A DNA stretch of 64,000 nt, from contig CALKWM010000039.1 in assembly GCA_938004065.1 (NCBI GenBank), positions 1,313-65,312 of the forward strand, in the 5' to 3' direction. The DNA is from an uncultured bacterium (GTDB lineage: Bacteria; Patescibacteriota; JAHJAL01). Below, piece after piece: positions 41,860-51,048 of this stretch; the stretch's first letter is position 1, and every line of letters starts with the position of its first letter. The notes beneath the pieces were generated by a model. The model searched no databases, was not told the DNA's origin, and saw only the letters and a program-made list of their open reading frames with translations. The position numbers and the translations under genes were made by a program.

Positions 41860-43137
41860 TATGTCCAAAAAAGAAGTACAAACTAGAATTAAGGTAAATA
41901 AACTACTCGAAGAAACCGGGTGGCGGTTTTTTGATAGCGAAACATGGCCGACCAATATCCGGCGGTTATTTATGCAGTTGTGTTTTGTCTGCTCGTTTTT
42001 GGGGGGAGTATAATTTATGTGATAGGGAAAAATGCGAGGGTGGGGAGGTAGATTCCAAGAAAGACTTATCAAAATTAAATTGAGTCAAAACCCTCTTACG
42101 TCCACCTTTGGAGGGAAGCGACACTAACGATATTATTTAAATTAACTATATCCTGTATGGCGCGAATTATTATAAAAAACAACTAGTACTCTTTATATGA
42201 TTTTGATAACGAAGCGGAATTTGAAAAAGCGGTTATTGAAAATCAGAAGTATATTTTCGGAAAAGATTCAATTTATATTGACGTAAAAAAAAGAATAGGA
42301 CGGGATAATCATCGCGGGATTCCTGATGCATTTTTAATTGATTTCTATGATACCAATAAACCGCAACTATATATAATTGAAAATGAGATTGCATCTCATG
42401 ACGTGTATTCAAATATTACTGAGCAAATCGCGCGTTTTGGCACTAGTATTGTTTCTTCTGCAAACGAAATACGCAATATATTAATCAAGGCAGTTGAAAG
42501 CGAACCAAAAACAATAAAAGAAATTGAGCGGTATTTACTGCAAACGGTATTTAAGAATATCACAGAACTAATGATTTTTCTCACCGAAGAAAATGATATT
42601 AAAATCGTAGTTGCAATCAATGAAATTACAACCGATCTGAATCTTGCTTTTAAGATTTTTAAGAATCCGCCGGACTTAGTTTTATTGCAACGCTATATAT
42701 ACGGAAATGATGTTTCATACTATTACGAACCGATGCGTGAAGAAATTGAAGATATTGAAACAGAGAAAAGCAAAACTGGCGAAGCCGTAGATTTCAATAC
42801 AGTTGTTTGTGCTGCATTAGAAGACGGTTTCAAACACGCATATAAGGAAAATAATGCTTGGTGGGCTATTCGGCTTTCACAAGAAGCGAGAGAAAAATTG
42901 AAGTATTTAGCGATTTATGAAAAAGCGCCGGTTGCGCATATTAGTCATTATGCAGAAATTGATAGGATTGAACCATACAAAGATACTGGTAAATACATTC
43001 TGTTTTTAAAAAATAAAAAAACAGTAAAACCGATCAAGCTTGGCACAGGAAAAAAAGGTGAAGCACCACAAGCGCCAAGATATACTACGCTTGAAAAACT
43101 ATTAAACGCTGATTCAATAAGTGAATTATGGAGTTGA
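41860..43137 (+). pseudogene. Disrupted PD-(D/E)xK / HsdR_N-like nuclease-family gene. Its N-terminus (41860-~41940) and body (42187-43137) are in the same frame, separated by a ~245-bp insertion that includes a duplicated TspO 3' fragment.
   Basis: N-terminal MSKKEVQTRIKVNKLLEETGWRF matches the ETRxKxIDxxLxxxGW start of HsdR_N/Mrr-type restriction proteins. The body has GIPDAFLIDF..LYIIENE. Stops lie between the two parts. Confidence 0.45.
41941..42050 (+). repeat. ~110-bp duplicated copy (about 85% identical) of the 3' end of the TspO-like gene (40666-40775).
   Basis: Aligned by eye: GGCC(G)ACCAATATCCGGCGGT(T/G)ATTTA..GTGTTTTGTCTG..GGGAGTAT.ATTTATGTGA.AGGGAAAAAT..GAGGGTGGG.AGGTAG. Confidence 0.6.
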
Positions 43138-43289
43138 TAATTAATAATATAAAGAATCATAAGAATACTATTATCAAATAATTTGGATGTTCTTGCTATT
43201 CCGAAAAATTTTTGTAAGATTAGGTATAACGAAGTATCCACTTGTTTCTATCGGTATTTTATAATGTTCTTTTTTAATAAGATATTAAT

Positions 43290-44888
43290 ATGTCTAAATT
43301 TAAAGATATTCCTCTAATCGATAGGCCAAGAGAAAGATTTTTAGTAAAAGGCCCAGATGTGCTTTCAAAAAGCGATCTTTTAGCGATTTTACTTGGTAGT
43401 GGAATCAAGGGGAAAAATGTAAAACAACTTTCCGAACAAATCATCAGGAAATTTAGCAACAAATTTTTAGATATTACTGTTGATGATCTTTTAGAAATTC
43501 CTGGAATTGGAAAAGCGAAGGCATTGCAGATTGTTTCTGCTCTCGCTTTGGTTAAAAGATTTTACAATGAACTTGGACCAAAAGATAATGTTGTTTTGTC
43601 CGTGCAAGACGCCGTTTCACTAACTTCTGAAATTAGAAACAAGAAAAAGGAATATTTAGTTTGTCTTTATCTGAATGCCCGAAATGTTTTGCTAAAAAAA
43701 GAAATTATCTCAATCGGAACGCTTGATAAAAGTTTAATTCATCCGCGAGAAATATTTGGCCCCGCCGTAGAATTAAGAGCGGCAGGAGTTGTTCTTTTGC
43801 ATAATCACCCGTCTGGCGATGTTGAGCCAAGCAAGCAGGATATTGAAGTAATCAATAAAATTCTTGAGGCCGGCAAAATTATGGGGGTGAATGTTATTGA
43901 TTTTATTATTGTTAGTGAAAATGACTTACACAGCATTTTTCAGTCATCACAGAAAGAAATCACGCATTATGTATCTGACGGGGGGCAGAATTCACTTTTT
44001 GATCTGCTTGAAACCGAACAGCAAACCTATACTCCGACAATAAAAAAAATACATAAAGTGTATTTTTACCCTGAAAGCAGAGCAAAGGCGGGTCGCTTTC
44101 AACTACAAAATAGACGCTATTTAGGAAATAAATACAAATTACTTGGATTTATTGAAGATATTATAAACGAAAAATGCAACGGCTTTAGTGTTTTTTGCGA
44201 TATTTTTGCGGGAACAGGAGTTGTCGCGGAACGATTTAACGAGAAAAATATCAAAGTGATTGCTAACGATTTTTTATCGAGCAATTTTATACCACTTAAA
44301 GCATTTTTAGGAACATCAAAAATAGACTTTGAGGAGATAGAGCACAAAATAAATTTACTCAATGAACTAAAAGCAACAGATGACAATTATTTTTCTGAAA
44401 ACTTTGGCGATACATATTTTACTTTAGAAAACGCAAGAAAAATTGGCGCAATTAGAGAAAAGATAAATAAGTTAAGCAATAATGAGGACGAAGAAGCGGT
44501 TTTAATTGCCTCATTGCTTTATGCGGTGGATAAAGTGGCAAATACCGTAGGGCATTATGACGCTTTCCGTAAAAAATTAGACACGGTGCAACCTTTGCGG
44601 CTTTTAGTGCCTGATTTTGAGGCGGAAAACAATATAAATAACGAAATATACAAGGAAGATGCCAATCAACTAATCAGAAAAATAAGTTGCGATGTTTTAT
44701 ACATTGATCCACCCTACAATTCACGCCAGTATTCAGATGCTTATCACCTTTTAGAAAATCTTGCTGCTTGGAAAAAACCGATCGTGCATGGCAAGGCGAA
44801 AAAAATGGATCGTTCGCATATCAAAAGCGATTACTGCTTGCAATCTGCGGCCAAAGCCTTTGCTGATTTAAATTATAACTATAATTGA
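43290..44888 (+). CDS. Fusion protein: N-terminal RadC-like JAB/MPN domain plus C-terminal D12-class (Dam-like) N6-adenine DNA methyltransferase.
   Basis: RadC signature HNHPSGD (JAMM) with upstream helix-hairpin-helix IPGIGKAKAL. C-terminal half has YLGNKYKLL, SAM motif I DIFAGTGVV and motif IV LYIDPPYNSRQYS. Confidence 0.7.
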   Translation: MSKFKDIPLIDRPRERFLVKGPDVLSKSDLLAILLGSGIKGKNVKQLSEQIIRKFSNKFLDITVDDLLEIPGIGKAKALQIVSALALVKRFYNELGPKDNVVLSVQDAVSLTSEIRNKKKEYLVCLYLNARNVLLKKEIISIGTLDKSLIHPREIFGPAVELRAAGVVLLHNHPSGDVEPSKQDIEVINKILEAGKIMGVNVIDFIIVSENDLHSIFQSSQKEITHYVSDGGQNSLFDLLETEQQTYTPTIKKIHKVYFYPESRAKAGRFQLQNRRYLGNKYKLLGFIEDIINEKCNGFSVFCDIFAGTGVVAERFNEKNIKVIANDFLSSNFIPLKAFLGTSKIDFEEIEHKINLLNELKATDDNYFSENFGDTYFTLENARKIGAIREKINKLSNNEDEEAVLIASLLYAVDKVANTVGHYDAFRKKLDTVQPLRLLVPDFEAENNINNEIYKEDANQLIRKISCDVLYIDPPYNSRQYSDAYHLLENLAAWKKPIVHGKAKKMDRSHIKSDYCLQSAAKAFADLNYNYN

Positions 44889-45751
44889 CTATGAAAAAAT
44901 CAAATTCAATTATCTTATTTAAACAAAAACAAGTTAGGCGTATTTGGGACGAAGAAAAAGAACTTTGGTATTTTTCGATCGTAGATGTGGTTGAAATATT
45001 GACGGATAGTCCAAGACCTAGAAAATACTGGAACGCCTTAAAAACCAAGCTAAAAGAGGAAGGAAGCGAGTTGTCCCAAAAAGTGGGACAACTGAAATTA
45101 GAGGCGGCTGATGGGAAAAAATACCTCACAGATGTAGCTGACACAGAAACTCTTTTGAGATTAATTCAATCGATACCATCGCCTAAAGCTGAACCCTTTA
45201 AACTTTGGCTGGCAAAAGTTGGCTATCAAAGGATTGAAGAAACCGAAGATCCTGAACTTGCCATTGATAGAGCGATGAAAACTTACTTGCAAAAAGGATA
45301 TTCGAAAGAGTGGATAAATCAACGGTTAAAAAGCATTGAGGTTAGAAAAGAGCTTACTGACGAATGGCAAATTAGAGGCATGAAAGAGGGATTGGAATAC
45401 GCAATATTGACGGATGAAATCACAAAAGCTTGGGCTGATAAAAATGTTAGAGATTACAAAAAATTTAAAGGATTGAAAAAAGAAAATTTGCGAGACAATA
45501 TGACAAATTTGGAATTGGTGCTCAATATGTTGGCTGAGGTTTCTACCGCAGAAATATCCAAAAAGCAAAAACCAAAAGGATTGGAAGAAAACAAGGGAGT
45601 AGCTCGCAAAGGTGGGTTTGCCGCTAAAAAGGCAAGACTTGAAATTGAAAAACAAACAGGTGAAAGGGTTGTTAGCTCAAAAAATGCAAAACATTTACAA
45701 GTAAAGGCAAAAAAATTTAAATCTTTGCCTAAAGAAAATAATCAAGAATAA
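44885..45751 (+). CDS. Bro-N domain protein, DinD-like (DNA-damage-inducible protein D family).
   Basis: N-terminal RRIWDEEKELWYFSIVDVVEIL is Bro-N-like. The C-terminal half resembles E. coli DinD (GLKKxN..NMxxxELxxN..). Confidence 0.5.
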   Translation: MTMKKSNSIILFKQKQVRRIWDEEKELWYFSIVDVVEILTDSPRPRKYWNALKTKLKEEGSELSQKVGQLKLEAADGKKYLTDVADTETLLRLIQSIPSPKAEPFKLWLAKVGYQRIEETEDPELAIDRAMKTYLQKGYSKEWINQRLKSIEVRKELTDEWQIRGMKEGLEYAILTDEITKAWADKNVRDYKKFKGLKKENLRDNMTNLELVLNMLAEVSTAEISKKQKPKGLEENKGVARKGGFAAKKARLEIEKQTGERVVSSKNAKHLQVKAKKFKSLPKENNQE

Positions 45752-45753
45752 TC

Positions 45754-46671
45754 ATGTCAATACAAATTCTATCAAATTTGAACTATCCAATTGGCAATAT
45801 AATTAGCCAAGAATTACAGAACGCAAATTCGGCAAAAATCGCTGTCGCTTTTTTGAAGTATTCGGGCGTAAAGGTTATCGAGAAGCCATTGGATAATTGC
45901 TTGAGAAATAATGGCAATATTGAAATTATTGCAGGACTTGATTTTAAAACAACTGACCCGCAATCAATGCATTATTTAATACAACTGCAAAAACAAACGC
46001 CAAATTTGAAATTTTATTGTTATGGCGACAAGGATGAGAACAAGACCGATGTTGTTTTTCACCCCAAAATTTATTTGTTTGAAAAAGCACGAGAGACTAC
46101 TGGCATTGTTGGAAGCACGAATTTGACACGAGGTGGTTTGCTTTCTAATTTTGAAGTAAATGTTGTAATTAAAGAGACAAAACCACTTTATTTTTCGCAG
46201 CTTCAAGCAATTTATAATTTCGTAAAATTTACGGATTCTGTTTTCTCTCCAGACGAAGAATATTTAGCGGGATACTCCGATGTTTATAAAGCATTTTTGC
46301 AAAACGAACAGAAAGCAACAAAAGACAAAGGCATTCAAAATGTTGTTCGTCAAATAAATAAGCGAGCTGAATCTTTGCCCGGAACAGTGCCATCAGTCAA
46401 AAGCTTGATTATTGATGTTATTAAAAAAGGAAAAGAACAAGGCGTGGAATTTGTGTCATTACAGACAATTTATGAAGAAGTTGAAAAAATTGTCGAAGAG
46501 AAAAAACTAAATTACAAAATGGATACTTTTAGAAACTCCATCAGAGGGGAACTAAACAAACACGAAACACATAGCAAGCACCCTGATAATATGGATTTAT
46601 TTATCCGATCATTAGAACGAAAGGGATTTTATTCATTAACCGATAAAGGTAAAAATTATGAAGGGCGATAA
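45754..46671 (+). CDS. PLD-superfamily nuclease (HxK..GSxN) with a ~160-aa C-terminal domain; candidate BfiI/NgoAVII-like restriction endonuclease.
   Basis: HPKIYLFEKARETTGIVGSTNLT carries the HxK(x)4D..GSxN phospholipase-D nuclease signature. A DNA methyltransferase lies immediately downstream. Confidence 0.6.
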   Translation: MSIQILSNLNYPIGNIISQELQNANSAKIAVAFLKYSGVKVIEKPLDNCLRNNGNIEIIAGLDFKTTDPQSMHYLIQLQKQTPNLKFYCYGDKDENKTDVVFHPKIYLFEKARETTGIVGSTNLTRGGLLSNFEVNVVIKETKPLYFSQLQAIYNFVKFTDSVFSPDEEYLAGYSDVYKAFLQNEQKATKDKGIQNVVRQINKRAESLPGTVPSVKSLIIDVIKKGKEQGVEFVSLQTIYEEVEKIVEEKKLNYKMDTFRNSIRGELNKHETHSKHPDNMDLFIRSLERKGFYSLTDKGKNYEGR

Positions 46672-46794
46672 AAATATTCAACAACGAATTGCCTGTCTGG
46701 AGGCAAAAATTGAACACAAAATCAATTATTCTTCTGGAAGCGTGGATGACGAAAGCCGAATTGATGATTTATCTTGCGAACTTTTAAAACTTGA

Positions 46795-47541
46795 AGAGGC
46801 GATTGCATAAAAATACTAAACGAAAAAATTGATGAAAGATCAGTTGAATTGATTTTTGCCGATCCGCCCTACAATCTTTCGGGAAACGGTTTGAAATGGG
46901 AAGGCAATAAAACAGGTGGTAATTGGTACATGGTCAATGAGGAATGGGACAAAATGACTGCTCCTGAATATATGCAATTTACCCGCAAATGGATCGGGGG
47001 CTGTCATAAAGTTTTGAAAGATAACGGCTCAATTTATATTTCTTGCACTTATCACAATCTTGCAGAGGTGATGATCGTTCTCAAACAACAGGATTTTAAG
47101 ATTAACAATGTCATTGTTTGGCGAAAGACAAATGCTATGCCGAATATGACAAAAAGAGTTTTTACACACTCCACGGAATTTGTCGTCTGGGCCGTAAAAG
47201 GCAAAAAATGGATTTTCAATTATGCAGAATTAAAAAAGATAAATCCTGAAAAACAAAAGGATGGTTCAGAAAAACAAATGAGAGATGTCTGGTCGCTTCC
47301 TTTGGTCCAAGGAAAAGAAAGGTTAAGAGGAAAAGACGGACGCGCTTTGCATCCAACTCAAAAGCCAGAGGAAATGTTAAAACGAATAATTATCGCTTCC
47401 TCAAACAAAGGCGACACTGTTTTAGATCCTTTTTTAGGTAGCGGAACAACGGCCTTTGTTGCTAAAAAATTAAGACGAAATTGGATCGGCATTGAAAAAA
47501 GCGGAAAATATGTTGATATGGCAAATAAAAGAATGAAATAG
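46795..47541 (+). CDS. Beta-class N6-adenine/N4-cytosine DNA methyltransferase (N6_N4_Mtase). The N-terminus is unclear: the first canonical start is TTG at 46849, the conserved GDCIKILNEKIDERSVELIFADPPY begins right after a TGA, and a possible frameshift links it to the ATG at 46658.
   Basis: Motif IV DPPY near the N-terminus, then HPTQKP and FLGSGTT (motif I), which is the beta-class order. The frame was analysed by hand around 46780-46800. Confidence 0.7.
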   Translation, partial: RGDCIKILNEKIDERSVELIFADPPYNLSGNGLKWEGNKTGGNWYMVNEEWDKMTAPEYMQFTRKWIGGCHKVLKDNGSIYISCTYHNLAEVMIVLKQQDFKINNVIVWRKTNAMPNMTKRVFTHSTEFVVWAVKGKKWIFNYAELKKINPEKQKDGSEKQMRDVWSLPLVQGKERLRGKDGRALHPTQKPEEMLKRIIIASSNKGDTVLDPFLGSGTTAFVAKKLRRNWIGIEKSGKYVDMANKRMK

Positions 47542-47951
47542 TCAGGGCTATTTTTCTACTAGCGGCCATTTATAAGATCATTGAGCGAATCAACATCTTT
47601 TTCCTCGAGTAGTGTGCCAAGATGCATATCACTCCTGACACCTAGTGCTACATCATATCGTTTTTCGATAGTACCAACATGTGTATCTGATCATTTTTGG
47701 CGATGGTGACCGTTCTCATTACGAGTGCGGTATCCCTTCATGCCTGAGCATCATTTTTCATGATAACCTCCAGCATTACAGCGAGTGGACTAATCTTCGG
47801 GACAGTTAATCTGCCAGTAGTTATCAGATGTGTCAACGAATAAAGTCTTAATCGCCCTGTTCAATTATTATATTTCCACAACACTATTGTTAATTTTTGA
47901 TATAATTTTTATATAATATTATTACAAGATAGCGAAAGATTGGAGGTAAAA

Positions 47952-48134
47952 ATGTATAAATCTAAATCAGGAATGATTTTTGCTAATTGTGAAGAATGTG
48001 GCGAAGAGCTCAATGAAATGGAACAAGAATTTTGCGACAAGAAATATCTGGAAATTGGTATGTTAAAAGCTATATGCAGTGAATGTTTATCAAAAAACTA
48101 CGAAGGTAAATTTCCATATTTACCGAAAAAGTAA
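47952..48134 (+). CDS. Small zinc-ribbon protein (CxxC..CxxC).
   Basis: CEECG..CSEC. GGAGGT Shine-Dalgarno 6 nt upstream of the ATG. Confidence 0.45.
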   Translation: MYKSKSGMIFANCEECGEELNEMEQEFCDKKYLEIGMLKAICSECLSKNYEGKFPYLPKK

Positions 48135-48206
48135 TTTATAATTAAAATTTAACCACTATCTTGTAATTTTAATATATATGAATAACTTACCCCCGCCGAA
48201 AAAAGA

Positions 48207-48536
48207 GTGATCATCGACAAGGGTACGGAAGCGCCTTTTTCCGGCGAATATGTAAATACCAAAGACGAAGGGGTATATGTCTGCCGGCAGTGCGAAGCGC
48301 CACTTTATCGTTCCCAGGACAAATTTGATTCCGGTTGCGGCTGGCCGAGTTTTGATGACGAGATCGCCGCCGGGGCGGTGAAAAGAGTGCCGGACCCTGA
48401 CGGACAGCGCACGGAAATAGTTTGCGCGCGGTGCGGTGGTCATCTGGGCCATGTTTTCACCGGCGAAAAGTTGACGGCCAAAGATGTGCGGCATTGCGTC
48501 AATTCGATCTCGATGATATTTATTCCCAAAAAATAA
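48207..48536 (+). CDS. msrB: Peptide methionine sulfoxide reductase MsrB; the N-terminus is possibly disrupted by a 1-nt frame change at 48178-48210.
   Basis: [37 protein letters not shown], with CxxC..CGWP and the catalytic Cys in [10 protein letters not shown]. The conserved LTPAEKRV lies in frame upstream with no start, while an ATG ([10 protein letters not shown]) sits in the adjacent frame. Confidence 0.75.
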
Positions 48537-48540
48537 TAGC

Positions 48541-49032
48541 ATGAATAAAAAGATAATATTGGCCGGGGGCTGTTTCTGGGGACTGGAAGAACTTTTTCGC
48601 CGGCAAAAAGGAGTGCTGGATATCACCGCCGGTTACACCGGCGGAAGCAATGCTGATCCGACCTACGAAAACCATCCCGGTCACGCCGAAGCGCTGGAGA
48701 TCGTGTACGATGACACCCGTACCGATTTTTGGCATTTGCTCGATTTCTTTTTTCAGATCCACGATCCCACCACTTTGAACCGGCAGGGCAATGATTTCGG
48801 CGATTCTTATCGTTCGGCGATATTTTATCAAAACGAGGAGGAGAAAAAGCAGGCCGAAGATTTTATCAAAATTGTCGATGATTCCGGGCGCTGGCCGAAT
48901 CCGGTGGTGACCACGCTGGAGCCGTTTACCGGATTTTATCCGGCCGAAGAATATCATCAGGATTATCTGCAGAAAAATCCGGGTGGCTACACCTGCCATC
49001 GGATTTATTTTGATAGTTATTTGCCGGAATGA
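48541..49032 (+). CDS. msrA: Peptide methionine sulfoxide reductase MsrA.
   Basis: ILAGGCFWGLEELF is the MsrA GCFWG active-site motif. Confidence 0.85.
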   Translation: MNKKIILAGGCFWGLEELFRRQKGVLDITAGYTGGSNADPTYENHPGHAEALEIVYDDTRTDFWHLLDFFFQIHDPTTLNRQGNDFGDSYRSAIFYQNEEEKKQAEDFIKIVDDSGRWPNPVVTTLEPFTGFYPAEEYHQDYLQKNPGGYTCHRIYFDSYLPE

Positions 49033-49270: not shown

Positions 49271-50302
49271 GTGAATAAAATGTCCCGACCAGATTTGCCC
49301 AACCAGAGTGACAAATTTCTCCTCTACACCTCTCCCGCCGGTGAGATAAAAATCGAAGTCTTTTTTCAAGACGAGACTGTCTGGCTCACCCAGAAAAAAA
49401 TGGCGGAATTGTTCGGTGTAGATAAACGCACGATCAGCGAGCATTTAAAGAATATTTACCATAGCGGCGAGTTGAAAGAGAATTCAACTGTCCGGAAATT
49501 CCGGACAGTTCAAAAAGAAGGCGAGAGACAGATAGTCAGAGAAATCGAATACTACAACCTCGACGCTATCATCTCCGTCGGTTACCGAGTCAACTCCTCT
49601 CGCGCCACCCAATTTCGCATTTGGGCCACAAAAACATTGCGGGAGTTCATCATCAAAGGCTTTGTACTCGATGACAATCGTTTGAAAAACGGGCAATATT
49701 TTGGCCAAGATTATTTTCAGGAATTACTGGAGCGTATCCGCTCGATCCGGGCGAGTGAACGAAGGGTGTATCAGAAAATTACCGATATATTTGCCGAATG
49801 CAGTATTGATTATGATGAAAATTCCGAAATAACAAAAAATTTCTATGCCATGATTCAAAATAAATTTCATTTTGCCATTTCCGGCAAAACAGCGGCTGAG
49901 ATAATATACGATCGCGCCAATGCCAAAGAAATGAATATGGGAATGACTACCTGGAAACACGCGCCGAAGGGAAGAATATTAAAATCGGACGCGGTGATTG
50001 CCAAAAATTATTTAGCAGAAAAAGACATCAAACGACTAGAACGAACAGTATCTAGTTATTTTGACTATTTAGAGAATCAAGTGGAAAACCGAGTGACTAT
50101 GACCATGGATTATCTAACGGAGAGTGTTGATAAATTTTTGTCATTCAACGATTATAAGTTATTGGCAGGGAAGGGAAAAGTTTCACAACAAAAAGCCAAG
50201 AAAAAAGCACATTCCGAATATGATAAATTTAATAAGACACAAAAAATAGAATCTGATTTTGATAAATTCTCCCAAAATATATTAAATAAAATTAAACCAT
50301 GA
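49271..50302 (+). CDS. RhuM-family (Virulence_RhuM) protein, typical of mobile islands.
   Basis: [32 protein letters not shown] matches the RhuM signature. Confidence 0.7.
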
Positions 50303-51048
50303 TTAAAAAAGAAGAAGTAAAAAATATCGTCAAAAAAAGTTACACCCAAATTGCCAAAGCGGGAAGTTGTTGCGGCTGCAGTTGTGGGCAAAAAGATGAA
50401 TCCGAGCGGATTGCTACTGAAATCGGGTATGCCCAGGATGATATCGCCAAATTTTCCGATGCCAATCTGGGCCTTGGTTGCGGTAATCCGGTGGCGATGG
50501 CGGAGATGAAAGAGGGGGATGTGGTGTTGGATCTTGGATCCGGGGCCGGCTTTGATTGTTTTTTGTCAGTGAGACAAGTGGGGCCATCCGGTCGGGTGAT
50601 TGGAGTAGATATGGTATCGGAGATGGTGGAGAAAGCTAAAGCTAATGCGGATAAGTATGACTACCAAAATGTTGTATTTCATCTGGGCGAGATCGAGCAT
50701 TTGCCGATCGAGGATGGCTTGGTGGATATCGTGATCAGTAATTGCGTGATCAATCTCTCACCGGACAAAGACGCGGTTTTTACCGAAGCTTATCGGGTGT
50801 TAAAACCGGGTGGCAAGATGTTTGTATCAGATATTGTTTTACTCAAAGAATTGCCGGAGGAAGTGCGCAACAATCCGCAACTATTGTCCGGATGTGTCGC
50901 CGGCGCCTTACTCAAAGATGATTATATCGGGAAAGTAAAAAATGCCGGCTTTGAGGTGGAAGTATTGGCGGAGGACAAAGACATCAGCAAGAAGCAATAC
51001 AAAGGGATGCCACTGGAAAGTCTCAAACTGAAAGCAGTCAAGAAATGA
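50299..51048 (+). CDS. ArsM-like SAM-dependent methyltransferase (arsenite methyltransferase family).
   Basis: N-terminal Cys cluster GSCCGCSCG. Motif [15 protein letters not shown] Cys follows in LLSGCVAGA. Conserved Cys residues are characteristic of ArsM. Confidence 0.55.

Follow-up and report, generated by a model that had tools for sequence, protein, structure and literature searches.

Probable recombination scar and predicted PLD-winged-helix nuclease in an AlwI/BspD6I-type restriction-modification operon of an uncultured Patescibacteriota bacterium

The window analyzed here is a stretch of 64,000 nucleotides (nt) from an uncultured bacterium of the Patescibacteriota (JAHJAL01; assembly GCA_938004065.1, contig CALKWM010000039.1, positions 1,313 to 65,312 of the forward strand). 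Positions 43290-47541 of the window are occupied by a mosaic operon of five genes, which we refer to as M1, the Bro-N passenger, the PLD-wH nuclease (for phospholipase D and winged helix), S50 and M2 (Table 1). A preliminary description had singled out the nuclease and M2 as a candidate type II restriction-modification (R-M) system, with the N-terminus of the methyltransferase apparently frameshifted. The parts were recognized correctly, but the unit consists of five genes, including a clipped second methyltransferase and Bro-N, and not of two. Other loci that carry the nuclease or the related operons are designated below by L numbers.

Table 1. Features of the five-gene operon and of the junction at the start of M2.
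Feature	Positions	Strand	Description and basis
M1	43290..44888	+	RadC + D12-class Dam-like adenine methyltransferase; 532 aa; Pfam
Bro-N passenger gene	44885..45751	+	286-288 aa; start ATG 44891 or TTG 44885; Pfam, PADLOC
PLD-wH nuclease	45754..46671	+	305 aa; Pfam, PDB profiles, Foldseek, AlphaFold model
S50 small ORF	46658..46810	+	50 codons; TAA 46808-46810; conservation across sister loci
In-frame TGA	46792..46794	+	directly 5' of the M2 homology; aligned with Tyr7 of intact M2
Recombination junction/overlap	46798..46810	+	M2 homology from G GCGATTGCATAAA (codon 9); the same bases are the S50 tail ..AIA-stop
M2	46795..47541	+	CcrM/HinfI-like beta-class N6-adenine methyltransferase; stop TAG 47539-47541; Pfam, NCBIfam, PDB

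The HxK..GSxN phospholipase D (PLD) motif that had been reported for the 305-residue protein is present as HPK (46060-46068) and GSTN (46111-46122). Pfam assigns the protein to PLDc_2 (3.3e-11) and to the N-terminal PLD domain of RE_NgoFVII (1.5e-07; 31.3 bits against a cut-off of 23.8). The single half-site HxK...(GS)xN...E within a PLD fold that marks the superfamily is found, and its residues H103, K105, G120, S121, N123 and E134 are invariant in 32 homologs, down to 44% identity. Among structures of the PDB, profile matches were obtained to SauUSI (5.3e-07) and to NgoAVII (0.044, confined to residues 100-125), and Foldseek matched the model to SauUSI (6.7e-09), NucT, NgoAVII-R and BfiI (4rct and 2c1l among the matches). 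These lines of evidence bear out a single-HKD fold of the BfiI/NgoAVII/SauUSI kind, and not that of a cardiolipin synthase.

The PLD domain extends over approximately residues 1-160 and is followed by a helical linker and by a C-terminal winged-helix-like domain at about residues 211-300 (46384-46653). In the AlphaFold model, pLDDT averages 65, and residues 211-300 stand at 78-94 in the topology H1-b1-H2-H3-b2-b3. A single-sequence model of the C-terminal domain was poor (pLDDT 65.6) and was not used. The sole match of this domain is a weak one, to Forkhead (0.005), and no B3-like (DNA-binding pseudobarrel) domain was recognized at the C-terminus. The C-terminal domain of the preliminary description is thus present, but it is predicted to be a winged helix and not the B3-like domain of BfiI and NgoAVII. 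From the sequence and the model, the protein is better described as a new PLD plus winged-helix architecture with a BfiI/NgoAVII-type catalytic module. If the protein is a restriction enzyme, the family would represent a new pairing of cleavage and recognition modules.

The family is strikingly well conserved and is widespread in uncultured bacteria. Nearly all of the best 120 database relatives have 305 residues and are 76-93% identical to the window protein; they come from Patescibacteria, Planctomycetota, Omnitrophota, Nitrospirota and Desulfobacterota. Between loci with near-saturated synonymous sites, the ratio of non-synonymous to synonymous substitution rates (dN/dS) of the nuclease is about 0.03-0.05. 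At 44-61% identity, members are also known from cultured bacteria, namely from Winogradskyella, from Cricetibacter, with C. osteomyelitidis DSM 28404 as a carrier, and from Helicobacter pylori, and the family is therefore directly testable. Searches of 72,556 plasmids, 50,697 phage records, 2.9 million viral contigs and E. coli genomes brought up no relative of full length, and a search of the literature on PLD nucleases in H. pylori or alongside AlwI systems returned nothing specific.

M2 is a beta-class methyltransferase, as had been stated, and is of the adenine type. Its frame matches N6_N4_Mtase of Pfam from end to end (1.1e-63; profile positions 1-221 of 221), with motif IV (DPPY, 46861-46872) ahead of HPTQKP (47350-47367) and of motif I (FxGxG; FLGSGTT, 47431-47451). 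The match to CcrM in the PDB (6pbd) is at 4.8e-59. The match to the NCBIfam CcrM model (2.6e-76, 256.8 bits) falls under the equivalog cut-off of 830 because the C-terminal domain of CcrM is absent. The sequence GDCIKILNEKIDERSVELIFADPPY lies directly 3' of the in-frame TGA, and the first canonical start (ATG, GTG or TTG) in the frame is the TTG at 46849, at Leu26. Intact relatives of M2 (255-270 residues, 81-94% identical) begin with MK(T/L)NTIY(T/Q)(G/D)DCIKIL, and their alignment confirms that the homology extends upstream of that TTG, as far as the TGA; the contrary possibility raised earlier, an alignment from the TTG without upstream homology, does not hold. The window M2 has no N-terminus of the form M-x-x-N-x-I-Y-x-G-D-C with a start codon of its own, and what it lacks are the ATG and codons 1-8 of the intact relatives. 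The 24 nt preceding codon 9 are unrelated to the intact alleles, and homology to the allele of L007 begins exactly at codon 9, so no single-base change restores the gene. Possible starts that are left are ATA (46807), ATA (46813), ATT (46828) and the TTG at 46849.

Several ways of supplying M2 with a beginning were considered and discarded. Recoding of TGA (code 4 or 25) is ruled out by the host's use of the code: open reading frames (ORFs) of at least 150 residues in code 11 cover 77% of the window, and TGA terminates 10 of the 49 ORFs of this size. The upstream part of the M2 frame, moreover, holds five TGA codons within 40 codons and shows no homology. A start at the TTG at 46774, which aligns with the ATG of the intact genes, fails at the sister loci, where a second stop stands at codon 2. 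The TTG at Leu26 is shared by the intact alleles (three of three), and it therefore carries no signal of selection as a start.

The preliminary description had placed a frameshift or a sequencing error near 46780-46795. An error of sequencing or assembly, or a recent frameshift private to one genome, is the default suspicion for a metagenome-assembled genome (MAG), but we regard it here as effectively refuted. The same junction recurs in independent assemblies from differing samples and phyla, amid many flanking substitutions, and no single-base insertion or deletion recovers an intact N-terminus. Six contigs, drawn from the assemblies of NCBI, ENA and Logan, encode the exact S50 product, and the window sequence is identical to contig DAIUKQ010000004.1 of GCA_036848155.1. 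At the sister loci, too, a stop in the M2 frame sits a few codons upstream. What is seen in these many assemblies is instead a recombination junction that replaces codons 1-8 of M2.

The only ATG of the region, at 46658, had been assigned to the adjacent frame. This is correct, but the ATG opens a separate conserved gene of 50 residues, S50, and is not a displaced start of M2. It lies within the last nuclease codons (T ATG AAG GGC GAT AA), 14 nt before the nuclease stop, and the last four codons of S50 with its TAA fall within codons 9-13 of M2 (the stop inside codons 11-13). S50 is in the +1 frame and M2 in the -1 frame relative to S50, with a 16-nt overlap at every locus. The S50 frame is open in all sister loci, where the products are 58-84% identical and dN/dS is about 0.1-0.3. 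The members of the family are free-standing proteins of 49-83 residues, and the motif SSGS.EDESRIDD..CELL.LEE marks those of 49-74 residues; S50 has no match in Pfam or NCBIfam. By these comparative measures, S50 is a real, conserved gene under purifying selection. A scan of metagenomes with the 50-residue ORF as query confirmed no relative, and the scan was done with the nuclease as query in place of S50.

No fewer than 11 distinct loci, spread over several candidate phyla, have S50 joined to a start-less M2. This junction was seen in L001-6, L008/9, L015 (Moranbacteria), L016 (Blackburnbacteria), L017 (Portnoybacteria) and L019/20 (Saccharibacteria), and also in L096-98, L111, L122-124 and L137; among the assemblies are a Brazilian metagenome series and MAGs of the four named candidate groups and of others. 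Synonymous divergence among the loci that share the junction is 0.3-0.77, and the junction is therefore old. The right junction occurs in a few fixed forms: S50 joined to codon 9 of M2; a Zn-ribbon ORF of about 63 residues joined just before ..SVDLIFADPPY; and small ORFs of 76 or 84 residues followed by an AlwI-like gene. In L163, the same S50 end is found without any M2. As a separate observation, the last codons of the nuclease (..Y-E-G-R-stop; 46654-46671 in the window) contain the ATG (T ATG AAG G..) in all sister loci, and the two unrelated small ORFs, S50 and the Zn-ribbon ORF, share it as their start, which is why both begin with MK.DK.

The origin of the junction is apparent from loci at which the same methyltransferases flank a different restriction gene. 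L007 and L176 carry M1, an AlwI-like enzyme of 609-610 residues (for the L007 type, Pfam RE_AlwI at 9.7e-85 and N.BspD6I of the PDB at 1e-34) and an intact M2. The window proteins are 90% (M1) and 91% (M2) identical to those of L007. A direct comparison is offered by L096, of the PLD type, and L176, of the AlwI type. In blastn, these are 96.6% identical over 2.6 kb, from exactly nt 24 of M2 into the next gene, and their M1 genes are 88.9% identical up to 221 nt before the M1 end. Between the shared arms lies the AlwI-like gene in L176, and Bro-N, the nuclease and S50 in L096; the two are therefore alleles of one locus. No AlwI-like sequence was found anywhere in the window. Sequence comparison thus identifies M1 and M2 as the flanking genes of an AlwI/BspD6I-type IIS R-M operon, in which the segment comprising the 3' end of M1, the AlwI-like enzyme and the first 23 nt of M2 was exchanged for one comprising a passenger, the PLD-wH nuclease and S50. 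The missing start of M2 is, on the same grounds, an old and conserved recombination scar, neither a frameshift nor a read error. We hold it very probable that the locus as a whole represents such a scar and a cassette swap at an R-M operon. It offers a clear natural case of restriction genes swapped as alleles between fixed methylase arms, and an exchange of this kind bears on the diversification of defense islands.

On the left side, the junction is variable. The M1 genes of the window, L001, L008 and L100 end at different points, all short of the ..LLSYNN.. region through which the intact copies of L007 (601 residues) and L042 run to their ends. The window M1 matches RadC (1e-34), UPF0758_N (2.1e-20) and MethyltransfD12 (1.8e-32, profile positions 1-225 of 253) in Pfam and lacks the last 55-70 residues, approximately, of its intact relatives. 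The M1 copies that share one truncated end (window and L018; ..ADL(N/S)YNYN) differ by about 0.74 at synonymous and 0.11 at non-synonymous sites. A RadC/JAB domain fused to a Dam-like methyltransferase is in itself a conserved arrangement, shared by many genomes of candidate phyla; dN/dS is about 0.05 in either half, and the fusion is kept even where the methylase half is down to 47 residues (L024).

The passenger slot likewise varies: it holds DUF3644 in L001, DUF4145 in L008, an N-terminal AlwI fragment in L013 and Bro-N in the window. The Bro-N gene (Pfam Bro-N, 2.5e-10) ends 2 nt before the nuclease ATG, and its product matches PDC-S13, a candidate single-gene defense family of PADLOC, over the full length at 6.7e-134, with residues 3-282 aligned to positions 1-280 of the 286 in the profile. 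Genes embedded in defense systems have been described as the phage defense candidates of PADLOC (bioRxiv 10.1101/2024.01.29.577857). The window resembles these cases of embedding and allelic replacement in that Bro-N is PDC-S13, the passenger slot varies and the AlwI- and PLD-type loci behave as alleles. It differs in that the insert has displaced the original restriction gene and shortened both methylase genes, in place of nesting between intact genes. A C-protein gene with a helix-turn-helix (HTH) domain was found upstream of M1 in L001 and L008 and is absent from the window, and a scan of 42300-48300 for promoters and terminators gave no more sites than shuffled sequence.

Other loci combine the nuclease with an AlwI-like gene that is retained. 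In Winogradskyella, the operon consists of an intact HTH-D12 gene, the nuclease, an ORF of 84 residues and an intact AlwI-like enzyme of 511 residues. L100-type loci contain RadC-D12, the nuclease, a 76-residue ORF and then an AlwI-domain protein of 376 residues. We know of no description, for the AlwI family, of a PLD gene between a D12 methylase and an intact AlwI-like gene, as is found in L042 and L100. The Winogradskyella locus (L042:4572-8695, from the cultured W. jejuensis DSM 25330) is an apparently intact four-gene operon with the PLD-wH nuclease, which makes this isolate the most suitable one for tests of the family.

The body of M2 bears no mark of decay. In ten distinct loci of the S50 type, M2 is complete from codon 9 onward. 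Conservation among 117 intact alleles reaches 97% or more at 120 columns; at these, the ten genes carry a mean of 0.7 changes, against 1.1 in the intact alleles themselves, and the window M2 has none. Among PLD-type loci, dN/dS of M2 is 0.03-0.05. The ratio of the proportions of non-synonymous and synonymous differences (pN/pS) between L096 and L176, its nearest intact allele, is 0.09, and that of the downstream gene is 0.08. On this evidence from substitution patterns we consider it rather probable that M2 is still expressed, and the gene is probably translated through coupling to S50 from a non-canonical start. Having translated the nuclease, ribosomes would begin anew at the S50 ATG, which overlaps the stop of the nuclease. 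Termination at the S50 TAA, within M2, would be followed by initiation at a weak start close by, one of the ATA, ATT and TTG codons named above; an SD-like (Shine-Dalgarno-like) GAAGAGG stands 7 nt before the ATA at 46807. The product would be the methylase minus 11-25 N-terminal residues, and its synthesis would be tied to that of the nuclease.

A programmed -1 ribosomal frameshift within 46795-46810 would yield a different product, an S50-M2 fusion of about 293 residues in which M2 has a 46-residue N-terminal extension. The frame relation and the constant overlap of the two genes are compatible with such an event, as is the SD-like purine run just 5'. RNAalifold also places a hairpin 3' of the overlap, with a few compensatory pairs; over 141 nt, the consensus structure reaches -10.9 kcal/mol, which is weak. 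Between the last stop of the -1 frame and the S50 stop there is, however, no X XXY YYZ heptamer, and the sole heptamer of the region (T TTA AAA, 46783-89) runs straight into the TGA at 46792. Where the two genes overlap, it is the S50 frame that is conserved (EE[AT][IT]A or EE[TM]LA), and the M2 frame varies between subgroups (GDC, DDC, SDC or NDC versus NAR). An in-frame fusion of S50 and M2 was met once, as a degenerate case, among 6 word-indexed and 15 profile matches: in L032 (positions 990-1420; P0260, a Magnetominusculus MAG), an S50-like ORF is in frame with M2 and encodes a product of 141 residues, the methylase core of which is internally deleted. All other relatives of S50 are free-standing. 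Heptamer, conserved structure and conservation of both frames, by which programmed frameshifting is recognized, are thus not found together here; a frameshifted fusion is improbable, and entry into M2 most probably follows termination of S50.

Several findings weigh against a living M2 made by re-initiation. The window has no canonical start before Leu26, and L016, L122-124 and L137 have none before DPPY, so expression would rest on rare initiation codons. Intact alleles and the M2 bodies of PLD-type loci are intermingled, with up to 98% identity between them, and the low dN/dS could therefore in part reflect recent recombination with intact genes and not selection after the swap. M2 is damaged at a number of sister loci, several of them of the Zn-ribbon type, by frameshifts in L018 and L072, by lack of a start in L025 and by an insertion or deletion in a run of seven A in L122/123; in L013, L035, L036 and L140 only fragments of it are retained. 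The run of seven A (A AAA AAT) in L122 (3590-3640) and L123 shifts the M2 frame once more relative to L124 and L137; an error in the homopolymer, phase variation of the tract and decay are possible reasons. Annotation pipelines would call the start-less, undecayed M2 a fragment of 230 residues or a pseudogene. If M2 is active, gene callers and surveys of R-M systems would systematically mis-score such methylases. The gene would also be a useful test case for non-canonical re-initiation in bacteria.

The relation of the nuclease to a methylase partner was surveyed at 65 distinct loci with at least 1.5 kb on either side, by tblastn with the window genes and by a Pfam scan of 17 loci. A relative of D12, AlwI or M2 adjoins the nuclease at 55 of the 65 loci, and an AlwI-like piece is present at 28. 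Full-length D12 is found at only 11 loci, and a near-full M2 at 16. Against a strict pairing of nuclease and methylase stand the 40 loci of the 65 that have neither a full-length D12 nor a full-length M2 beside an intact nuclease gene. At 17 such loci, no DNA methyltransferase family is among the 25 most frequent neighboring Pfam families. Orphan nuclease genes also exist. In L010 (5001-6167), the nuclease and a 76-residue ORF lie inside an ABC-transporter operon, and in L055 (5992-6918; H. pylori G-Mx-2005-108) the nuclease gene lies between lptF-like and outer-membrane protein genes; neither has a methylase within 5-6 kb. These counts tie the nuclease to AlwI-type operons and indicate that an intact neighboring methylase is not strictly needed. 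The notion of a simple nuclease-methylase pair is only partly supported, because the nuclease often stands without an intact neighboring methyltransferase. The earlier argument that an inactive methylase beside an active nuclease would be lethal is weakened by the same loci.

The survey bears directly on an alternative, in which M2 and the clipped M1 are non-functional remnants of a displaced AlwI-type system and the PLD-wH nuclease is independent of any neighboring methylase. The nuclease would then be modification-dependent (Type IV-like), otherwise self-limited, or protected by methylases encoded elsewhere. We judge this account unlikely, if well short of negligible. It would accommodate the 40 loci, at which the nuclease is highly conserved, and the two orphans, and it draws on the clipping of M1, the damage to M2 at many sister loci and the lack of a canonical start in the window. 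The best PDB match of the PLD domain is, furthermore, the Type IV enzyme SauUSI, and there are weak matches to mREase_IV of PADLOC. It does not sit well with the absence of excess change in the ten S50-type M2 genes, with the low pN/pS of M2 even against the nearest intact allele, or with the excess of synonymous over non-synonymous difference between M1 copies of one truncated end. The persistent placement of the nuclease by adenine methylases would also be odd for an enzyme that depends on N6-methyladenine (m6A).

In the explanation that we prefer, the PLD-wH protein would dimerize in the manner of BfiI and Nuc, with one HKD active site per dimer, bind DNA by its winged helix and act as the restriction nuclease of the locus. 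It would be kept in check by M2 methylation, probably of GANTC-type sites. Enzymes of the CcrM/HinfI group methylate GANTC. The assignment of M2 to the GANTC type (the match to 6pbd; PMC3017599) suggests that GAGTC, the site of the BspD6I/MlyI/PleI branch of the AlwI family, would be covered on both strands. Control of the nuclease by M2 is plausible, with the balance tilted slightly to the other side. We nevertheless lean toward the explanation as a whole, that is, a mosaic operon in which M2 is produced through coupling and restrains the nuclease.

Comparison with known systems places the locus between several of them. BfiI/BmrI and the R-proteins of NgoAVII/NgoFVII/CglI have, as does the window family with its invariant H, K, N and E, one HKD half-site per chain, which implies a dimer with a single active site. 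The likeness extends to the NgoFVII and Foldseek matches given above and to the order of the domains, a nuclease domain and then a separate C-terminal domain of a DNA-binding type. It ends there: similarity beyond the catalytic core is negligible, the C-terminal domain is predicted to be a winged helix in place of a B3-like barrel, and the adjoining methylases are m6A enzymes of an AlwI-type operon. The N-protein or helicase partner of NgoAVII and CglI is also lacking in the window. Enzymes of the BfiI/NgoAVII type are further marked by cleavage at specific sites without a metal ion, which methylation of the cognate kind blocks. The type IIS systems of AlwI, MlyI, PleI and BstNBI-BspD6I (GGATC or GAGTC) resemble the window through L007, where the methyltransferases that flank an AlwI-family enzyme are 90-91% identical to those of the window, but the window nuclease has the PLD fold and not PD-(D/E)XK, and no AlwI-family gene accompanies it. 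BspD6I uses a second, separately encoded nuclease subunit (PMC3017599). SauUSI, the best match of the PLD domain in sequence and structure, is a protein of 953 residues with an ATPase motor and a DUF3427 reader, whereas the window protein has 305 residues and no ATPase.

A broader proposal is that PLD-wH and its trailing small ORF form a self-contained cassette that has repeatedly converted AlwI/BspD6I-type operons by entering between the two methylase genes. The resident restriction gene would have been replaced or split, and the downstream methylase, deprived of its start codon, would be kept alive by the overlapping frames of nuclease, S50 and M2 and by non-AUG re-initiation. We consider this doubtful as one combined account. 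If true, it would mean a new family of restriction nucleases (PLD plus winged helix) and a conserved translational coupling without a start codon, by which methylase synthesis is tied to nuclease synthesis.

The surroundings of the operon contain further genes of possible interest. On the minus strand at 47560-47900, a frame of about 100 codons (..INCPED*STRCNAGGYHEK*CSGMKGYRTRNENGHHRQK*SDTHVGTIEKRYDVALGV..LINGR) is broken by three in-frame TGA only. With TGA read as W, it has no match in Pfam, and the host itself uses TGA as a stop. Either a pseudogene or a fragment acquired from a donor that recodes TGA could account for the frame. The genes msrB and msrA (48207-49032) lie between M2 and a RhuM-family gene (Pfam, 4.7e-109), which is followed by an overlapping gene for a class-I S-adenosylmethionine (SAM) methyltransferase (49271-51048 for the two). 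In L007, a RhuM gene stands about 700 nt after M2, and RhuM may belong to the same defense neighborhood. Genes for AAA_13 or AAA_15 ATPases follow M2 in L001, L008 and L176 and not in the window. In L013/L014 (7572-9037 in L013), a Kiwa system (KwaA/KwaB) immediately adjoins the PLD locus.

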